Positions 13,372-24,317 of a stretch of 32,000 nucleotides of DNA are shown piece after piece. This DNA comes from Geotalea uraniireducens Rf4 (lineage in GTDB: Bacteria; Desulfobacterota; Desulfuromonadia; Geobacterales; Geobacteraceae). Location: the NCBI RefSeq assembly GCF_000016745.1, contig NC_009483.1:1950001-1982000 (forward strand), written 5' to 3'. The number at the start of each line of letters is the position of its first letter. Position 1 is the first letter of the stretch. A program made the position numbers and the translations under genes. The notes under the pieces are model-generated. The model was not told the DNA's origin. It searched no databases and was given only the letters and a program-made list of their open reading frames with translations.

Positions 13372-14151
13372 ATGTTAAGACCCAGAATCATACCATGCCT
13401 GTTGATTCACAAAAACGGGCTTGTGAAGACGGTTAATTTCAAATCACCTAAATATGTGGGTGACCCAATCAACGCGGTCAAAATTTTCAATGAGAAGGAG
13501 TCGGATGAGCTGATTGTTTTGGACATTGACGCCACAGTCAATAACGTTGAGCCAAACTATAAAATGATTGCAAATTTGGCAGCTGAGTGCCGGATGCCTC
13601 TTTGTTACGGCGGCGGTATACGCACTGCCGTGCAAGCAAAAAGGATCATAGGCCTTGGAGTTGAAAAAGTAGCCATAAGTACAGCAGCCGTAGAGACCCC
13701 GCATCTGGTTACTCAAATTTCAGAAGAAATTGGCCGCCAAAGTGTTGTGGTTGTTCTGGATGCCAAAAAACGTCTGCTAAGCAAGGACTATGATGTTTAC
13801 ACACATAACGGTATAAAAAAATCAAAGCATAGCGTATTTGAGATAGTGTCTCAGATCGAAGCGTTGGGCGCTGGTGAAATTGTCATCAATTCAATTGATA
13901 ACGACGGGCAAATGAAGGGTTATGATCTTGAATTGGCTAGACAAATTAAGAAAATGGCACATATTCCCGTTACTATTTTAGGTGGGGCCGGGTCGCTGAA
14001 AGACATCGGCGACTTGATCCGTAATTGTGGCACAATTGGTGCCGCTGCAGGTAGCTTGTTCGTGTTTAAGGGCGTGTATAGGGCTGTGTTGATAAATTAT
14101 CCCAAGCAAGCTGAAAAGGATGATCTTATCCGCGCCAACTATCCGTTTTAA
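13372..14151 (+). CDS. hisF: HisF-like cyclase subunit (WbuZ/AglZ/HisF2-type acetamidino modification protein)
   Basis: RIIPCLLIHKNGLVKTVNF...DELIVLDIDA...GGGIRT...GADKV-like (GVEKVAI)...NSIDNDGQMKGYD...GGAGS. TIM-barrel HisF pattern; third member of the trio. Confidence 0.9.
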   Translation: MLRPRIIPCLLIHKNGLVKTVNFKSPKYVGDPINAVKIFNEKESDELIVLDIDATVNNVEPNYKMIANLAAECRMPLCYGGGIRTAVQAKRIIGLGVEKVAISTAAVETPHLVTQISEEIGRQSVVVVLDAKKRLLSKDYDVYTHNGIKKSKHSVFEIVSQIEALGAGEIVINSIDNDGQMKGYDLELARQIKKMAHIPVTILGGAGSLKDIGDLIRNCGTIGAAAGSLFVFKGVYRAVLINYPKQAEKDDLIRANYPF

Positions 14152-14173
14152 TAACATTGTACTTAGAGGTATT

Positions 14174-15364
14174 ATGAAGACAGTTCTGATTACCGGTTCT
14201 AATGGCTTTGTCGGCAGAAACCTGACCGTCTCTCTTACGCAGCGTAAGAATGTAAAGGTTACCGGCTTCGATGTCGATGACGATCAGACTGTATTGTCAT
14301 CCTTGGTGGCGGGGGCAGACTTTATCTTTCACCTTGCGGGGGTCAATCGTCCGCAGAACGTCGAAGAGTTCACCACAGGGAATACCGGACTGACGCAGAC
14401 GATTGTTTCACTCCTGCAAAAACAGGGTAAAAAGACACCGCTGGTGATCTCCTCTTCTTCCCAGGCGGCACAGGACAACCCTTACGGCATCAGCAAGCGG
14501 GATGCCGAAGATGCCGTCTTCGCCTACGGCCGTCAGACTGGGGCACCGGTATATGTCTACCGCCTGCCGAATGTCTTCGGCAAGTGGTGCCGCCCCAATT
14601 ACAACAGCGCCGTCGCCACGTTCTGCAACAACATCGCCAACGATCTGCCGATCCAGATTAATGATCCGAACATGGTGATGAACCTGGTGTTTATCGACGA
14701 CGTGGTGAATTCGTTCATTGCTGCCCTGGACGGCAGCGTGGCGGTGCAGGATGACTTCTGCCAGGTGCAGCCGGTTCATACAGCCAGGCTCGGTGAGATT
14801 GCCGCGCTGATCCACTCGTTCAGGGAGAGCCGCGAAGATAGAAGCATCCCCGACATCTCTGACCCGTTCACCAAAAAGCTCTACAGCACCTACCTCAGTT
14901 ATCTTCCTGTTGGTCAGTTCAGCTATCCGCTGAAGATGAACGTGGACGAGCGGGGGTCGTTCACCGAGTTCATCAAGACACCCGACCGGGGGCAGGTTTC
15001 GGTGAACATCTCAAAGCCGAGTATCGCCAAGGGGAATCACTGGCACCACACCAAGAATGAAAAGTTTTTGGTGGTGAGCGGGGAGGGCGTAATTCGCTTC
15101 CGGAAAGTCGGCAGCGAAGAGATTATCGAGTATAATGTTTCCGGCGAAAAGCTGGAGGTAGTCGACATTCCGACCGGCTATACTCACAGTATCACCAATA
15201 CCGGCGAAACCGATATGGTCACGGTCATGTGGTGTAACGAGATGTACGACCCGGAAAAACCGGATACGTTTTTCGAACCGGTAAACCTGTATTTAACAGG
15301 GATGAAGGGGATACAAGGGATAACGGCAAAAAACAAGACAAAGACTCTTGGTTTAAATTCATAA
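14174..15364 (+). CDS. fnlB: FnlB/CapF-like bifunctional SDR + cupin enzyme (UDP-L-FucNAc pathway reductase/epimerase)
   Basis: N-terminal MKTVLITGSNGFVGRNL SDR domain plus C-terminal cupin (GNHWHHTKNEKFLVVSGEGVIRF...GYTHSITNTG), the CapF/FnlB architecture. The last ~26 codons ([26 protein letters not shown]) are read from repeat element copy 1. The ORF track start at 14120 overlaps wbuZ; ATG 14174 has an AGAGG RBS. Confidence 0.8.
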   Translation: MKTVLITGSNGFVGRNLTVSLTQRKNVKVTGFDVDDDQTVLSSLVAGADFIFHLAGVNRPQNVEEFTTGNTGLTQTIVSLLQKQGKKTPLVISSSSQAAQDNPYGISKRDAEDAVFAYGRQTGAPVYVYRLPNVFGKWCRPNYNSAVATFCNNIANDLPIQINDPNMVMNLVFIDDVVNSFIAALDGSVAVQDDFCQVQPVHTARLGEIAALIHSFRESREDRSIPDISDPFTKKLYSTYLSYLPVGQFSYPLKMNVDERGSFTEFIKTPDRGQVSVNISKPSIAKGNHWHHTKNEKFLVVSGEGVIRFRKVGSEEIIEYNVSGEKLEVVDIPTGYTHSITNTGETDMVTVMWCNEMYDPEKPDTFFEPVNLYLTGMKGIQGITAKNKTKTLGLNS

Positions 15365-15412
15365 AATGATAAGTCTTTATGCTTTATGGGGTTATATCCC
15401 CTTAATCCCTGT
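15296..15412. repeat. MITE/REP-like hairpin element, copy 1 (GGGAT-nonamer arms)
   Basis: Left arm ACAGGGATGAAGGGGATACAAGGGATAAC, right arm GTTATATCCCCTTAATCCCTGT, with a ~65-nt centre. Complementarity extends outward (CCTGTATTTA / TAAATAAAGG, 15286-15421). Confidence 0.85.
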
Positions 15413-15429
15413 AAATAAAGGGTTCGCTT

Positions 15430-15798
15430 ATGATTCATGAAGAACTCACCGAGAAAATTCTTAAAGCCTGTTTCGAAGTCAGCAATGAACTTGGTTGCGG
15501 ATTTCTTGAGTCAGTCTATCTAAAAGCCCTGTTGATCGCTCTCGCGCAAACAGGTCTGAGAGCTCAGGCACAGACACCACTGACAGTTATGTTTCGCGGT
15601 CAACCGGTCGGAGATTTCTTTCCGGATATTATTGTTGAAGACACAATATTGCTAGAGTTGAAAGCGGTAAAAGCGCTTGCGCCGGAACATCTTGCCCAGG
15701 TTATGAATTACCTGAAAGCAACTGGAATTGAGGTTGGATTTTTAATCAACTTCGGGACACCCAAACTTGAATACCGCCGCTTCGGCAATCGGTTTTAG
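15430..15798 (+). CDS. GxxExxY protein (PD-(D/E)XK nuclease-fold family)
   Basis: 122 aa. GFLESVY matches GxxExxY at residues 24-30. DIIVEDTILLELK gives a D...E-x-K core. Size is typical of the family. Confidence 0.85.
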   Translation: MIHEELTEKILKACFEVSNELGCGFLESVYLKALLIALAQTGLRAQAQTPLTVMFRGQPVGDFFPDIIVEDTILLELKAVKALAPEHLAQVMNYLKATGIEVGFLINFGTPKLEYRRFGNRF

Positions 15799-15825
15799 CA
15801 ACAGCACAAAAGTAAAGGCAACTTA

Positions 15826-15947
15826 ACAGGGATGAAGGGGATGCAGGGGATAACGGCAAAAACAATAGATGCAAGCTTTTGGGGTTAAACCAAAAAGAAG
15901 TTTCTGTGGTTTTAAGATTTCATCCCCTTTATCCCTTTCATCCCTGT
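15826..15947. repeat. MITE/REP-like hairpin element, copy 2
   Basis: ACAGGGATGAAGGGGATGCAGGGGATAAC ... ATCCCCTTTATCCCTTTCATCCCTGT. The centre differs from copies 1 and 3. Confidence 0.85.
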
Positions 15948-16007
15948 GAGATAAAGGTTTTTGCAGTAGTTTTCATGCGTGAATATTAGTGGCTGATAGA
16001 GGTGATT

Positions 16008-16145
16008 ATGAAAAAACTGAAAGTAGTAACAGTAGTCGGTACCCGGCCGGAGATTATCCGCCTCTCCCGTGTGCTTCCCAAGCTGGATCAGTACATGGAG
16101 CACATCCTTGTCCATACCGGCCAGAACTACGACACCCAAACTTGA
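16008..16145 (+). pseudogene. Truncated 5' fragment of a UDP-GlcNAc 2-epimerase (fnlC) gene, joined to the duplicated GxxExxY 3' end
   Basis: Encodes [42 protein letters not shown], then TQT-stop after the junction at 16133/16134. The first 42 codons match the start of the intact gene at 16399 with 10 nt differences. Confidence 0.75.
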
Positions 16146-16203
16146 ATACCGCCGCTTCGGCAATCGGTTTTAGCAACAGCAGCATAAAAGCAAAGGCAAT
16201 TTA

Positions 16204-16329
16204 ACAGGGATGAAGGGGATACAAGGGATACAGGCAAAAACCAAAGACTGTATACTTTTGGGTTAACCAGAGAAGTTCATATTGTTTCTGCTTTTCGAGT
16301 TTTATCCCCTTAATCCCCTTCATCCCTGT
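16204..16329. repeat. MITE/REP-like hairpin element, copy 3
   Basis: ACAGGGATGAAGGGGATACAAGGGATACAGGC ... TTATCCCCTTAATCCCCTTCATCCCTGT. Confidence 0.85.
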
Positions 16330-16398
16330 GAGATAAAGGTTTTTGCAGTAGTTTTAATTCGTGAATATTCATGCCATTCGTGGCTGATTGAGGTGTAT

Positions 16399-17529
16399 AT
16401 GAAAAAACTGAAAGTCATGACTGTAGTGGGAACGAGGCCGGAGATTATCCGCCTCTCCTGTGTGCTTCCCAAGCTGGATCAGTACATGGAGCACATACTT
16501 GTCCATACCGGCCAGAACTACGACTACGAGTTGAACGAGATTTTCTTCACCGATCTGGGTATTCGCCAACCGGACCATTTCCTGGGTGCTGCCGGGGCAA
16601 CCGCAGCGGAGACCATCGGCCAGATTATCATCAAGATCGATCCGCTGCTAGCTGAGGTCAAGCCTGAAGCGTTGCTGGTACTGGGTGACACCAACAGCTG
16701 TCTTGCCGTCATTCCTGCCAAGCGGCGCAAGATTCCCATATTCCACATGGAGGCGGGGAACCGCTGCTTCGACCAGCGGGTGCCGGAAGAGACCAACCGC
16801 AAGATTGTGGATCATACGAGCGACATCAACCTGACCTACAGCGACATCGCCCGCGAATACCTGTTGCGGGAGGGACTCTCCCCAGACCGGGTGATCAAGA
16901 CCGGCTCCCCCATGTTTGAAGTGCTGACCCACTACCGGGAGAAGATCGACAGTTCCGACGTGCTGCAAAAACTTGTACTGGAGGAACAAGGATATTTCGT
17001 GGTCAGTGCCCACCGGGAGGAAAACGTCGATTCCGAGGTTAATTTCAGGAAGATGGTGACCATTTTGAACAGCATCGCGGAAACATACGGCAAGCGGATA
17101 ATCGTCTCCACCCATCCCCGTACTCGCAAGCGGGTGGAAAGCCTTGGGGTGATCTTTCATGAAAAGGTCGAGCTTCTGAAGCCCCTTGGTTTCAGTGATT
17201 ACGTCCACCTCCAGCAGCATTCTTTCGCGGTTCTCTCCGATAGCGGCACGATTACCGAGGAGTCATCGATACTGAATTTCCCGGCGCTGAACATCCGCGA
17301 GGCCCATGAGCGACCGGAGGGAATGGAGGAGGCGAGCGTCATGATGACTGGCCTGGAGTTGGACCGCATCCATCAAGGGCTGGCGGTGCTTGCTGAACAG
17401 AGTAGGGGAGAGAACCGGTTACTGCGGCAGGTTACCGACTACTCCATGCCGAACGTTTCGGACAAGGTCGTGCGGATTATCATCAGCTACACGGATTATG
17501 TGAACCGGACGGTGTGGAAGAAATCCTGA
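16399..17529 (+). CDS. wecB: UDP-N-acetylglucosamine 2-epimerase, non-hydrolysing (WecB family; FnlC/Cap5G type by context)
   Basis: [20 protein letters not shown]...[15 protein letters not shown]...GDTNS...HMEAGNR...HRE EN...DSGT. 376 aa, the length expected for FnlC. The ORF track start at 16282 reads through repeat copy 3. Confidence 0.9.
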
Positions 17530-19377: not shown

Positions 19378-19408
19378 TTGGATTTTGAATTGTGGATCGA
19401 ATTTTGGG
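19378..19408. repeat. AT-rich inverted-repeat arm (left) flanking the four-helix-bundle gene
   Basis: ttggattttgaattgtggatcgaattttggg. Blocks attttgaatt and ttttgg are complementary to the right arm at 19771-19807. Confidence 0.7.
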
Positions 19409-19414
19409 TGAGAC

Positions 19415-19768
19415 ATGAAAGAAGACAATATTATTCAGAAGAAAAGCTATGAGTTTGCTCTTCAGGTAATTTCACTTTATCGGAAGCTTTATAAAGCCAA
19501 CGAGTTTGTCTTGTCAAGACAGATCCTCCGGTCAGGGACCAGCATCGGGGCGAATGTTGAGGAAGCCCAGGCTGCACAGAGTAGAGCCGATTTCGTATCG
19601 AAGATGTCAATAGCCTCAAAGGAGGCAAGAGAAACCTGCTACTGGCTACGTCTGCTGCGAGACAGCAACACCATTTCAAAATGTGAGGCCGACGCTCTTT
19701 TGTCAGAAGCGGAATCAATAGTGAATATATTGACATCTATTGTGAAAACAAGCAGCAAATCAAAGTAA
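19415..19768 (+). CDS. Four-helix-bundle protein (23S rRNA intervening-sequence protein / Avd-like family)
   Basis: 117 aa. SYEFALQVISLYRKL...LSRQILRSGTSIGANVEEAQAAQSRADFVSKMSIASKEARETCYWLRLL is the typical family signature (RSxTSIGANIxEA ... KExxET.YWL). Confidence 0.85.
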   Translation: MKEDNIIQKKSYEFALQVISLYRKLYKANEFVLSRQILRSGTSIGANVEEAQAAQSRADFVSKMSIASKEARETCYWLRLLRDSNTISKCEADALLSEAESIVNILTSIVKTSSKSK

Positions 19769-19770
19769 TT

Positions 19771-19807
19771 CAGCATCCAAAATTCAGAATTCAAAATTGG
19801 ATTTTTT
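19771..19807. repeat. AT-rich inverted-repeat arm (right), built of RAATTCA-like heptamers
   Basis: cagcatccaaaattcagaattcaaaattggatttttt. Its reverse complement matches the left arm and the third arm at 20445-20476. Confidence 0.7.
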
Positions 19808-22253: not shown

Positions 22254-24317
22254 GTGTATGATTCCGGTGGTCACTTGAAATCAACTTCCCCTTATACCGG
22301 CAACGCCCTGATCGGCAAGCTGCTTTCCCCGTCTGCGCTGAAGCGTTTTCTCTTCTTTTTCAGCGCTGACCTGCTCATCATTGCGGCTTCTCTTTATCTT
22401 GCCTTATACTTCCGCTTCGATTTTAGGGTGGATGCTCGCTACTTCTCCCTCATCACCGCCGCACTCCCACTGTTTATCGTGATCAAGCTCGCCCTGTTCG
22501 TCGTCTTCCAGGTTTACCATATCACCTGGCGCTTTGTCGGTCTGGATGAGCTTTACAACATAGGGATTGCCATACTGATCGCGGAAGCTGTTCTGATGGC
22601 GCTTCTGCTCACCACATCGACCGGATGGCTTCATCTGTCCCATTACGCGGTTTCCTTTCCGCGCAGCATCTTTATCAATGACGGCCTGATCACCTTCCTG
22701 CTCGCCTGCGGTCTGCGTATCTCGCGCCGTGTCTACCGGGAGGTCATTTTTAAAAAGACCAGTAGCGCGAAGGGTAAGCGGGCGCTGGTCATCGGCGCTG
22801 GTATGACCGGGGAGCTGGTGCTCAGGGACATGGCGCGGCGCGACTTCGCCGACTTTTACCCGGTCGGCATCCTGGACGACGACAGCAGCATGAAGGTCGG
22901 TACCTACATCCACGGCGTGCGGGTTCTGAGCACCACGGACCGTCTGCGCGAGATCGTAAGGCAGCATAGTGTCGAGGTGGTCATCATTGCCATACCTTCC
23001 ACCCACTACAAGGCGTTGCGCAAGATATACCACCTGGCAAAAGAAGCGGGGATTGAGCGGATCAATATCGTGCCCCAGATGTACAAGAACCACGAGCGCT
23101 TCGAAGTGAGCATGAAGGGGATTCACGAGATCAGCATCGAGGAGCTGATTGGCAGGCAGTCTGTGGAGGTGGATTACGACTCCATCGAGCAAATGCTCGC
23201 CGGCAAATCCATCCTCGTATCGGGTGCCTGCGGCTCCATCGGATCGGAGATCGTTCGCCAGGTTTGCAGCTTCAACCCGGCCCGGCTGGTGCTGTTCGAA
23301 ATCGACGAAACCGAGCTGCACAACATGCAGTTGCGGCTGGCTAGGGAGTTTCCCTCACTGTTGGGAAGGATTTACTACGTCGTGGGCGATGTCAGGGACA
23401 GAAGCCGGGTGAGAGGGGTGATGGCGGCCCATGCACCGGAGCTTGTCTTTCACGCCGCAGCCTACAAGCATGTGCCTATGATGGAGCATAATCCCTCGGA
23501 GGCGGTGAAGGTAAATGTCTTCGGCACCTTCAATCTGGCCCAGGCGGCCGTCGACCACGGCGTGGAAAAGTTCGTCATGATCTCGACCGACAAGGCGGTG
23601 CGTCCGACCAGCATCATGGGGGCGACGAAAAGGGTGGCTGAGTATGTCTGCTCTGCCTTCAGCCGCGCCAATGTTACGGAATTCACCTCGGTACGATTCG
23701 GCAATGTGTTAGGGAGCCGCGGCAGCGTCCTGCCGCTGTTCATGGAGCAGTTGAAAAACGGTGGGCCTCTGACTGTTACGGACCGGGAGATGCAGCGCTA
23801 TTTCATGACCATTCCGGAGGCGGTTTCGCTCGTACTGCAGGCGGCCGTCATCGGCAATAACGGCGATGTGATGGTGCTCGATATGGGGGAACCGGTGAAG
23901 GTCGTGGAGCTTGCCGAGGAACTGATCCGGTTGCACGGCCTGAAGCCGTACGACGACATAGCCATCGAATTTGTCGGACTGAGGCCTGGTGAAAAGCTTT
24001 TCGAGGAGATTCTCACTGCCGAGGAGGGGACCGATGCCACCAGGCACGAGAAGATATTCGTCGCGCGCAACGGCAGCTGTCACACCATGGAGCAGCTTGA
24101 TGAGCTATTGCGGGAATTCTCCAGGGTGCCCGAGGTTGCGCCCGGTCTGAATGACCAGCAGTTTGTAAAAGAGCTGCTGATGAAGCATGTGCAGCACTTT
24201 CACGTTCAGCAAAAAATAACTATTTGCCAAGCAACACCGCCTTCAGATTCCGGATCCGCTTTTTTTGCAGATGGACGAGTACCACGTCTAAGAGGGTGCT
24301 TAAGAGGAATGTCGTGA
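22254..24317 (+). CDS. Membrane-anchored UDP-GlcNAc 4,6-dehydratase (PglF/WbpM/CapD family, Polysacc_synt_2)
   Basis: Four or five N-terminal TM helices, a first Rossmann-like domain (ALVIGAGMTGELV), then SGACGSIGSEI, YKHVPMME, STDKAV, MGATKR and FGNVLGSRGSV. The start is uncertain: GTG 22254, or TTG 22275 with GGTGG upstream. Confidence 0.9.
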   Translation: MYDSGGHLKSTSPYTGNALIGKLLSPSALKRFLFFFSADLLIIAASLYLALYFRFDFRVDARYFSLITAALPLFIVIKLALFVVFQVYHITWRFVGLDELYNIGIAILIAEAVLMALLLTTSTGWLHLSHYAVSFPRSIFINDGLITFLLACGLRISRRVYREVIFKKTSSAKGKRALVIGAGMTGELVLRDMARRDFADFYPVGILDDDSSMKVGTYIHGVRVLSTTDRLREIVRQHSVEVVIIAIPSTHYKALRKIYHLAKEAGIERINIVPQMYKNHERFEVSMKGIHEISIEELIGRQSVEVDYDSIEQMLAGKSILVSGACGSIGSEIVRQVCSFNPARLVLFEIDETELHNMQLRLAREFPSLLGRIYYVVGDVRDRSRVRGVMAAHAPELVFHAAAYKHVPMMEHNPSEAVKVNVFGTFNLAQAAVDHGVEKFVMISTDKAVRPTSIMGATKRVAEYVCSAFSRANVTEFTSVRFGNVLGSRGSVLPLFMEQLKNGGPLTVTDREMQRYFMTIPEAVSLVLQAAVIGNNGDVMVLDMGEPVKVVELAEELIRLHGLKPYDDIAIEFVGLRPGEKLFEEILTAEEGTDATRHEKIFVARNGSCHTMEQLDELLREFSRVPEVAPGLNDQQFVKELLMKHVQHFHVQQKITICQATPPSDSGSAFFADGRVPRLRGCLRGMS

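Follow-up and report, generated by a model that had tools for sequence, protein, structure and literature searches.

A GxxExxY gene with a predicted nuclease fold, bounded by inverted iteron arms and inserted between fnlB and fnlC in Geotalea uraniireducens Rf4

The DNA analysed here is a 32,000-nt stretch of Geotalea uraniireducens Rf4 (NCBI RefSeq assembly GCF_000016745.1, contig NC_009483.1, positions 1,950,001 to 1,982,000 of the forward strand; hereafter the window), in which an operon of polysaccharide or O-antigen genes carries an insertion between an fnlB-like and an fnlC-like gene. The insertion contains the gene for a 122-residue GxxExxY protein and three hairpin elements, E1, E2 and E3, together with fragments copied from its own gene and from fnlC (Table 1). 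All nine matches in the window to the 17-nt arm ACAGGGATGAAGGGGAT (up to 3 mismatches; 0.10 expected) lie inside E1–E3, the arms of which consist of the 9-nt units ACAGGGATG AAGGGGATA CAAGGGATA, and for each element a long hairpin is predicted on both strands (z = -5.4 to -8.0). Arm matches and folds agree with an earlier note on this DNA, which had described three elements of ~120 nt at these places sharing inverted arms of 9-nt units. Its boundaries are correct in position but short, since the palindromes reach ~12 nt past them, and the centres, which it described as differing between copies, have indeed diverged in sequence but are not unrelated: on alignment they are homologues, with 81% mean column identity over the whole elements. 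The GC content is 42–45% within the insertion against 52–58% in fnlB and fnlC. No intrinsic terminator or promoter was predicted at the window hairpins, and an E-value scan of positions 14800–16800 against Rfam returned only sub-threshold plant microRNA-precursor hairpins (best 37 bits, against a gathering score of 95).

Table 1. Coordinates of the insertion, its parts and the associated genes in the window.
Feature	Position	Strand	Evidence and remarks
fnlB-like UDP-sugar reductase gene	14174..15364	+	NF047837 E 1e-138, residues 3-370; native part ends near 15283-15295
Whole insertion	15283..16342	+	Outermost inverted pair 15283-15323 / 16302-16342 (41 nt, 85% complementary); empty sites L201-L205; GC dip
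Hairpin element E1	15296..15412 (extended palindrome 15284-15424)	+	Right arm short of one 9-nt unit
GxxExxY gene, 122 aa, predicted minimal RecB/Cas4-like PD-(D/E)XK nuclease domain	15430..15798	+	TIGR04256, PF13366, AF2 model
Hairpin element E2	15826..15947 (extended ~15812-15962, including GAGATAAAGGTTT)	+	Arm matches, fold, alignment, homology limits
Duplicated fnlC upstream spacer and first 42 fnlC codons (ATG 16008), truncated pseudo-copy	15963..16133	+	15985-16133 91% identical to 16376-16524
Exact copy of GxxExxY gene 3′ end (15756-15806)	16131..16181	+	Direct repeat, 51 nt, 100%
Hairpin element E3	16204..16329 (extended ~16190-16342)	+	Arm matches, fold, alignment
Intact fnlC-like non-hydrolysing UDP-GlcNAc 2-epimerase (wecB/fnlC-type) gene	16399..17529	+	TIGR00236 238.6 bits, over cut-off
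Four-helix-bundle gene (TIGR02436, '23S rRNA intervening sequence protein')	19415-19768	+	Profile match, E 1.9e-30

In relatives whose fnlC is 88–90% identical the site is empty: the fnlB stop codon is followed by a spacer of 90–156 nt and then fnlC (L201–L205; L numbers denote the loci compared), with neither a hairpin (nhmmer, E up to 1) nor a GxxExxY gene at the junction. Homology of the window to four unrelated contigs (L046, L104, L028 and L117), in which a GxxExxY protein 82–92% identical is framed by the same hairpins, is limited to the hairpin-gene-hairpin unit (15291–15962 for L046, 15293–15960 for L104). A scan of a species-representative genome collection with a pattern for the two hairpin termini yielded at least 120 hairpin-bearing loci; none of the 120 listed contains fnlB or fnlC. 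The confinement of the homology to the unit, the empty junctions, for which the earlier note had suggested looking, and the GC dip bear out its proposal that a hairpin-bounded cassette entered the fnlB–fnlC junction.

The cassette would have landed at the extreme 3′ end of fnlB, replacing its stop codon. The FnlB proteins of the relatives comprise 370–374 residues and stop 0–4 codons after a conserved FFEPV, while the window ORF (open reading frame) runs 26 codons beyond its family-model match into E1, to a stop at 15362–15364; the native stop codon is gone, and the last 22–26 codons and the stop are supplied by the insertion. The native fnlC spacer is kept from ~16343 and is homologous to the spacer of L204. 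In the right-hand part of the insertion, the segment 15756–16133 is present again at 16131–16524. The 51-nt copy of the 3′ end of the GxxExxY gene, directly upstream of E3, is fused in frame to the fnlC fragment, with GAC as the microhomology at the duplication junction, and the fragment at 16008–16133 is 91% identical to the real 5′ end and covers positions 1–41 of TIGR00236 (E 1.9e-7). E3 is therefore part of a partial duplication, or of a recombination with a diverged allele in which the cassette was already present upstream of fnlC; such a subsequent event of ~380 bp would have brought in the second hairpin and the fnlC 5′ fragment. For annotation it is relevant that the element has altered its host genes, leaving an fnlB that lacks its own stop and is longer by ~22–26 residues, and creating a pseudo-fnlC fragment.

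The protein encoded between E1 and E2 is a member of the GxxExxY family, as the earlier note had recognized from its motif and its PD-(D/E)XK core: residues 5–118 align with TIGR04256 (E 1.6e-40, 138.1 bits, cut-off 35) and PF13366 (PDDEXK_3; E 2.5e-40, 137.9 bits, cut-off 22), both above their cut-offs. The motifs GFLESVY, PD66 and E76-L-K78 are present, residues E27, D66, K78, Q90 and Y94 are invariant in 34 sequences, and E76 is at least 90% conserved. An AlphaFold (AF2) model built from 34 homologues has a pLDDT of 91.6, and its top Foldseek matches among solved structures are Cas4 SSO0001 (E 2.5e-4), the restriction-endonuclease-like 3ijm and lambda exonuclease. The profile and structure searches advised in the note thus show conserved catalytic residues and a predicted fold like those of Cas4 and lambda exonuclease, with what in the model is a complete minimal RecB/Cas4-type active site. 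A dN/dS of 0.03–0.09 in the window clade (dS 0.5–1.4 or saturated) shows that purifying selection is strong and hence that the protein is functional. The lineages of this clade are old, with nearly invariant arm cores and randomized hairpin centres. Two-domain tandem homologues of 250–280 residues exist (P0241, P0243, P0244, P0251 and others), which suggests a dimer as the functional unit. The family is large (15,320 clusters at 50% identity, E up to 0.001) and its function is listed as unknown in Pfam; in the literature read for it, GxxExxY appears as a domain label only. An exact-sequence look-up of the 122-residue protein found no record, a sequence search of the PDB found nothing significant, and the family libraries of PADLOC (defence systems) and PHROGs (phage) gave no match.

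The association between gene and arms was assessed in 80 GxxExxY loci from metagenome contigs (proteins 45–95% identical), which had been picked by peptide patterns only, with their flanks ignored. Where the protein is at least 66% identical, a window-type hairpin or single arm lies directly beside the gene in 18 of 20 loci, and in these 18 the element has the orientation of the gene and, where the contig is long enough, is found on either side of it. Arrays occur beside the gene, with 8 copies upstream and 3 downstream in L132, and 5 and 4 in L129. Many of the closest homologues are found on contigs shorter than 3 kb, which may reflect the breaking of metagenome assemblies by flanking repeats. 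Of the hairpins from the pattern scan, ~90% are solitary, and a GxxExxY gene lies within ~200 nt in only 9 of the 120 listed loci. The link between nuclease and hairpins, put forward in the earlier note as a candidate, is stronger than proposed there, being near-obligate in the clade of the window protein and extending, as an armed architecture, family-wide. As a separate observation, a c-di-GMP-I riboswitch (L127, 665–741) lies ~320 nt upstream of a hairpin array that precedes a GxxExxY gene.

The window hairpin profile has no match in the 59 loci of 59% identity or below and a partial one in L138 (62%). A simple form with window-type arms is found in L130, L131 (77%) and L138, consisting of an arm, ~15–60 nt, the ORF, ~45 nt and the inverted arm (534 and 467 bp). 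Of 47 genes below 66% identity, 27 have 150-nt flanks connected by an inverted repeat that scores 30 bits or more, compared with 0 of 135 shifted controls (maximum 24.3 bits); a direct repeat connects the flanks of only 2. The arms of these distant clades are 19–80 nt long, are 88–100% matched between the two sides and lie 0–93 nt from the matched coding region. Each is made up of 2–4 iterons with a period of mostly 9–10 nt (8–10 overall), the core of which differs by clade: GGGGAT, CAGGAT, CGCAGAT, CACAGAT, CACGAAT, CGCGAAT, CRCGGAT or CACCGAT. The nearest protein neighbour shares the iteron type in 21 of 27 cases (0 of 2000 permutations). Two GxxExxY paralogues lying 870 nt apart in L152 (750–1100 and 1972–2331) have different arms, with the cores CAGGAT and C(A/G)CGGAT, respectively.

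The anatomy, the insertion and the gene–arm association, taken alone, can be stated with high confidence. We interpret the insertion as a compact cassette of the selfish type, a GxxExxY gene bounded by inverted arms of two to four 9-nt iterons (A/G)AAGGGGAT, whose product is a nuclease acting on its own arms; for this statement as a whole, including the mechanism, we estimate a probability of roughly 0.55. The basic form throughout the family would be arm, ORF and inverted arm, 430–600 bp in all. [quoted passage not shown] The nuclease, probably dimeric, would bind the iterons of its own arms and cut at or near the termini, the substrate being either synapsed duplex arms or an extruded hairpin. 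Copies would be made by host repair or replication without target-site duplication, and this reliance on the host would explain why such duplications are missing. In the operon transcript the arms may fold into stems of 25–35 bp, which by analogy are candidate substrates of RNase III; that enzyme cuts such stems in 23S rRNA intervening sequences, and cutting here would let the operon tolerate the insertion. We infer both the action of the nuclease on its arms and the mobilization of the element by it. The periodic core of the arms is repeated, matched between the two arms and swapped as a set between clades, as a sequence-specific binding partner would be expected to maintain it, and GxxExxY is the one gene that is constantly linked to them.

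The units tend to be embedded in operons. Of the GxxExxY units, 39 of 60 are co-oriented with the upstream neighbour and 37 of 56 with the downstream neighbour, and they are often tightly packed between cistrons, in polysaccharide and ABC-transporter operons. In L172 an ABC ATPase takes its C-terminus from the left arm, which is paralleled by the C-terminal gain of fnlB in the window, and 2 nt separate the right arm from the next start codon; in L144 the next ATG directly abuts the right arm. A right arm ending 0–2 nt before the start of the next operon gene (L144 4445–4446, L172 4439–4442, L147 and L176) puts the ribosome-binding region of that gene within the arm, so that its translation could be coupled to the stem being melted or cleaved. 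Two junctions within ABC-transporter operons are each shared by three units (L144/L147/L180 and L172/L176/L163), in genomes only ~70% identical at the nucleotide level. Folding of the hairpin RNA, compared for 69 oriented hairpins from L001–L120 and the window, is stronger on the strand co-oriented with the GxxExxY gene (-49.0 against -46.6 kcal/mol; 43/69, p = 0.004), with 10.0% G-U pairs on the gene-sense strand and 8.2% on the other; this is weak support for pairing at the RNA level.

These observations are what would be expected of an element that works at the RNA level only, namely an insert resembling an intervening sequence whose arms serve to form an RNase III stem, while the protein has some other cellular role and the unit spreads by recombination or horizontal transfer. 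The co-orientation and close packing, the sense-strand folding advantage and the long persistence at orthologous sites all fit such an element, as does the intervening sequence of Coxiella 23S rRNA, a selfish element of 428–444 nt in which RNase III cuts a 28-bp terminal stem and a small four-helix-bundle ORF has tandem GACAGAT heptamers next to it (PMC4990558). A stem alone needs complementarity only, however, and not a periodic core repeated 2–4 times per arm and kept across phyla. Lone hairpins, moreover, lie in both orientations relative to neighbouring genes, with only a mild bias (25 against 12), and some are found between convergent genes. In a gathering-level Rfam scan of 40 GxxExxY loci there was no rRNA (one riboswitch and one tRNA were found), and the gene is under strong purifying selection, with its catalytic residues intact. 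On balance we consider an RNA-level role without nuclease action unlikely.

A profile of the three window copies found at least 165 elements in 121 sequences (the listed loci and the window), most with a clearly preferred orientation. The hosts among the matches listed are Geomonas and Citrifermentans isolates and metagenome-assembled genomes (MAGs) of Desulfuromonadales, Acidobacteriota and Verrucomicrobiota, with single matches in one Pedobacter and one betaproteobacterial MAG; they include complete chromosomes and MAGs with several hairpin-bearing contigs. The elements measure 95–135 nt, with arms of ~26 nt whose core positions are ~87–100%, mostly 97–100%, conserved across phyla. The palindrome extends into A-rich and T-rich flanks, as TTTA-ACAGGGAT...ATCCCTGT-(T/A/G)AAA. 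Between loci the arms are 85% identical and the centres near random (57% identity, against 52% when shuffled), while within one genome the centres are 54–80% identical; structure in the centres is weak (mean z = -0.88). In arrays a 134-nt unit including the spacer is repeated at high identity, which points to local tandem duplication. Viral contigs gave 24 arm matches, ~3 complete hairpins and no GxxExxY gene, roughly as many as expected by chance on our own estimate for a 16-base pattern, and plasmids gave no hairpin-arm match. The arm sequence was not found in the supplements of the G. bemidjiensis genome paper, and no such element is described in the main text of the G. metallireducens genome paper.

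Intergenic location, A- and T-rich flanks, long persistence and diverged centres might equally characterize repeats domesticated by the host, with a role like that of REP or ERIC sequences in mRNA stability, termination or nucleoid structure, among which a housekeeping GxxExxY nuclease would have come to lie by chance. Such repeats would hardly be expected to share their arms across phyla, to be missing from the corresponding site of close relatives or to come in a separate type for each of many paralogues in one protein family, and the window hairpins have no predicted terminator-like sites; we regard this possibility as very improbable.

Several points weigh against a cassette driven by its own nuclease. 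No arm of at least 30 bits was found at 20 of the 47 distant genes, and the co-variation of iteron and protein could come from physical linkage alone. The proposed link between protein and arms is drawn from sequence and a predicted structure. A hydrolytic nuclease of 122 residues, with a single domain and no separate DNA-binding domain, cannot alone catalyse strand transfer, and several units lie at orthologous sites in genomes ~70% identical, so that movement can be no more than rare. Other genes, too, lie between window-type hairpins, namely an MNT-HEPN-like pair of two small ORFs (L129, 2646–3327) and, beside a GxxExxY cassette, a gene resembling gmd for GDP-mannose 4,6-dehydratase (L123, 4759–5751), both identified from their translations only. 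Finally, a similarly armed cassette in the same operon encodes a protein that is not a nuclease, as do 23S rRNA intervening sequences; some other factor may thus be what reads the arms. This second cassette (19382–19797) lies 3.5 kb downstream of the GxxExxY insertion, between the sugar phosphotransferase and NeuD-type acetyltransferase genes, and carries the four-helix-bundle gene between arms at 19382–19410 and 19774–19797 with repeated AATTTTG(A/G)-like units.

The bracketing of other genes, the predominance of solitary hairpins among the matches listed and the dispersal of copies in many genomes would also fit conventional MITEs moved by the transposase of an IS that escaped our searches, with the GxxExxY gene captured once as cargo. 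The earlier note had called the hairpins MITE-like, and this stands as far as terminal inverted repeats, small size, lack of coding capacity and multiple copies are concerned. It does not extend to target-site duplication, of which, or of any direct repeat at the ends, there is no trace at 18 distinct gene-bearing units, nor to a conventional transposase: no parent IS or recognized transposase with the same terminal inverted repeats was found among the 120 hairpin loci and 80 GxxExxY loci. Within the 120 there is no transposase framed by arms, and only 11 partial arm matches are present, most of them next to a complete hairpin or a GxxExxY gene. A single capture event cannot account for the separate arms, one per side, that each of the other GxxExxY clades has, and the gene is kept by selection. 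Capture as a passenger is accordingly an improbable origin. The likeness of the selfish-type cassette to IS and their MITEs, such as Chunjie in this genome and Nezha, is nevertheless considerable and includes terminal inverted repeats, a short non-coding hairpin derivative, insertion at operon junctions and the coexistence of an autonomous-looking form with gene-less copies. The differences are that target-site duplications and a DDE, HUH, serine or tyrosine transposase are missing here, the sole ORF being a 122-residue nuclease domain. Chunjie itself, for which NC_009483:2632106–2632324 is given as a coordinate, measures 178–235 bp, with 21-bp terminal inverted repeats and 9-bp direct repeats (PMC3184786, PMC6042816), and is, going by this description only, probably a different element from the window hairpins.

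The termini of the units invite comparison with integron attC sites. The dinucleotide that flanks the hairpins is TA on their left side, while on the other side it is AA, TA or GA, and AAC stands just outside the first iteron, giving an AAC/GTT terminus, in 11 of 18 distinct units. Hairpins of 100–130 nt, a size typical of attC, that often end in ATTTAAC (RYYYAAC) and GTTAAAT (GTTRRRY) and lie beside a small co-oriented ORF might be attC sites following a promoterless cassette, recombined by an integron integrase. The stems, however, are near-perfect, with neither the unpaired central spacer, or bubble, of attC nor obvious extrahelical bases, and at the right end GT is followed by a variable base (T 42%, A 39%, G 16%). 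Tandem arrays run to as many as 8 hairpins without an intervening ORF, in distant clades the ORF has an arm on either side instead of a hairpin after it, and no integrase is among the annotated window ORFs (those before 24820). The attC reading, which the AAC/GTT ends had prompted, was rejected on the structure of the stems, the variable base after GT and the ORF-less arrays, and we give it almost no credence.

For the nuclease-bearing cassette that we prefer, the closest counterpart in overall organization is the REPIN/RAYT system (Bertels and Rainey 2011, PMC3116915, PMC3337134). There, multiple REPINs typically flank the enzyme gene, every RAYT is paired with a REPIN family of its own, and a REPIN comprises two inverted repeats around a non-conserved spacer with A and T runs beside it (PMC3337134). 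Likewise, the GxxExxY gene encodes a small enzyme and has on its flanks multiple copies of a palindromic repeat of its own, in which two conserved inverted arms surround a non-conserved spacer of ~40–110 nt; gene-less copies are scattered in large numbers, the repeat type is particular to each enzyme lineage, the flanks contain A/T runs and the elements persist for long. The enzyme, however, is of the PD-(D/E)XK type where RAYT is an HUH/Y1 (IS200-like) transposase, and tandem 9-nt iterons without the GTAG/CGTC tag make up the arms, in place of a single GTAG-tagged REP palindrome. The same arms are found here across phyla, whereas REPIN/RAYT is mostly inherited vertically, and the basic form here has a single arm on each side of the gene. 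Elements of the IS200/IS605 group and palindrome-associated elements resemble the units in their hairpin ends, small size and lack of target-site duplication, and the reliance of IS200/IS605 movement on hairpins in single-stranded DNA makes it a plausible mechanistic analogue; those elements have subterminal imperfect hairpins and the HUH enzyme TnpA, in contrast to the long inverted iteron arms and the absence of TnpA here.

A second counterpart is formed by the 23S rRNA intervening sequences with an S23p/four-helix-bundle ORF, as in Leptospira and Coxiella (PMC4990558). They share with the GxxExxY units a length of 430–600 nt, one small ORF enclosed by a terminal inverted-repeat stem of ~28 bp, short repeats (GACAGAT) in tandem in the arm region, toleration within a transcript and the status of elements regarded as selfish, and the four-helix-bundle cassette in the window is of the same build. 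They differ in their site, which is helix 25 or 45 of 23S rRNA and not, as here, between the cistrons of an mRNA operon, and in encoding a four-helix bundle instead of a nuclease fold; processing by RNase III is transferred to the present units by analogy only. The stem around a small ORF is thus common to both, and the rRNA insertion site is not.

To our knowledge, 23S rRNA intervening sequences do not spawn families of gene-less hairpins.

A broader hypothesis, which we offer tentatively and think somewhat less probable than its opposite, is that the GxxExxY proteins are the dedicated nucleases of a widespread and so far unrecognized class of mobile elements of ~0.5 kb. Each would read its own clade-specific iterons of 8–10 bp and spread both itself and gene-less hairpins, with neither target-site duplication nor a DDE or HUH enzyme, and 23S intervening sequences and four-helix-bundle cassettes would be relatives. 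What is new here is an apparently undescribed armed architecture for a very large protein family. It provides a hypothesis for a family whose function databases do not list, that the nuclease recognizes its own arms, and one clade of this family would have seeded a hairpin repeat common to several phyla. If the hypothesis is correct, there are mobile elements run by a PD-(D/E)XK enzyme, the long-open question of the origin of 23S rRNA intervening sequences gains a lead, and small nucleases whose target repeats are modular and readable become available as a natural set.

Profile-based annotation of the window ORFs places the insertion within a + strand operon in which glycosyltransferases, the amidotransferase WbuX, HisH and HisF2/WbuZ precede the fnlB-like reductase; the latter scores 462 bits with NF047837, under the curated cut-off of 500. 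Downstream, the fnlC-like epimerase is followed by a WcaI-family glycosyltransferase, a sugar phosphotransferase, a NeuD-family acetyltransferase and an aminotransferase. In the relatives L201 and L205, fnlA lies between the hisF2/wbuZ-like gene and fnlB, whereas in the window (13372–15364) wbuZ is directly followed by fnlB; the only FnlA/PseB-like domain seen in the window is the C-terminal half of a 687-residue ORF at 22254–24317.

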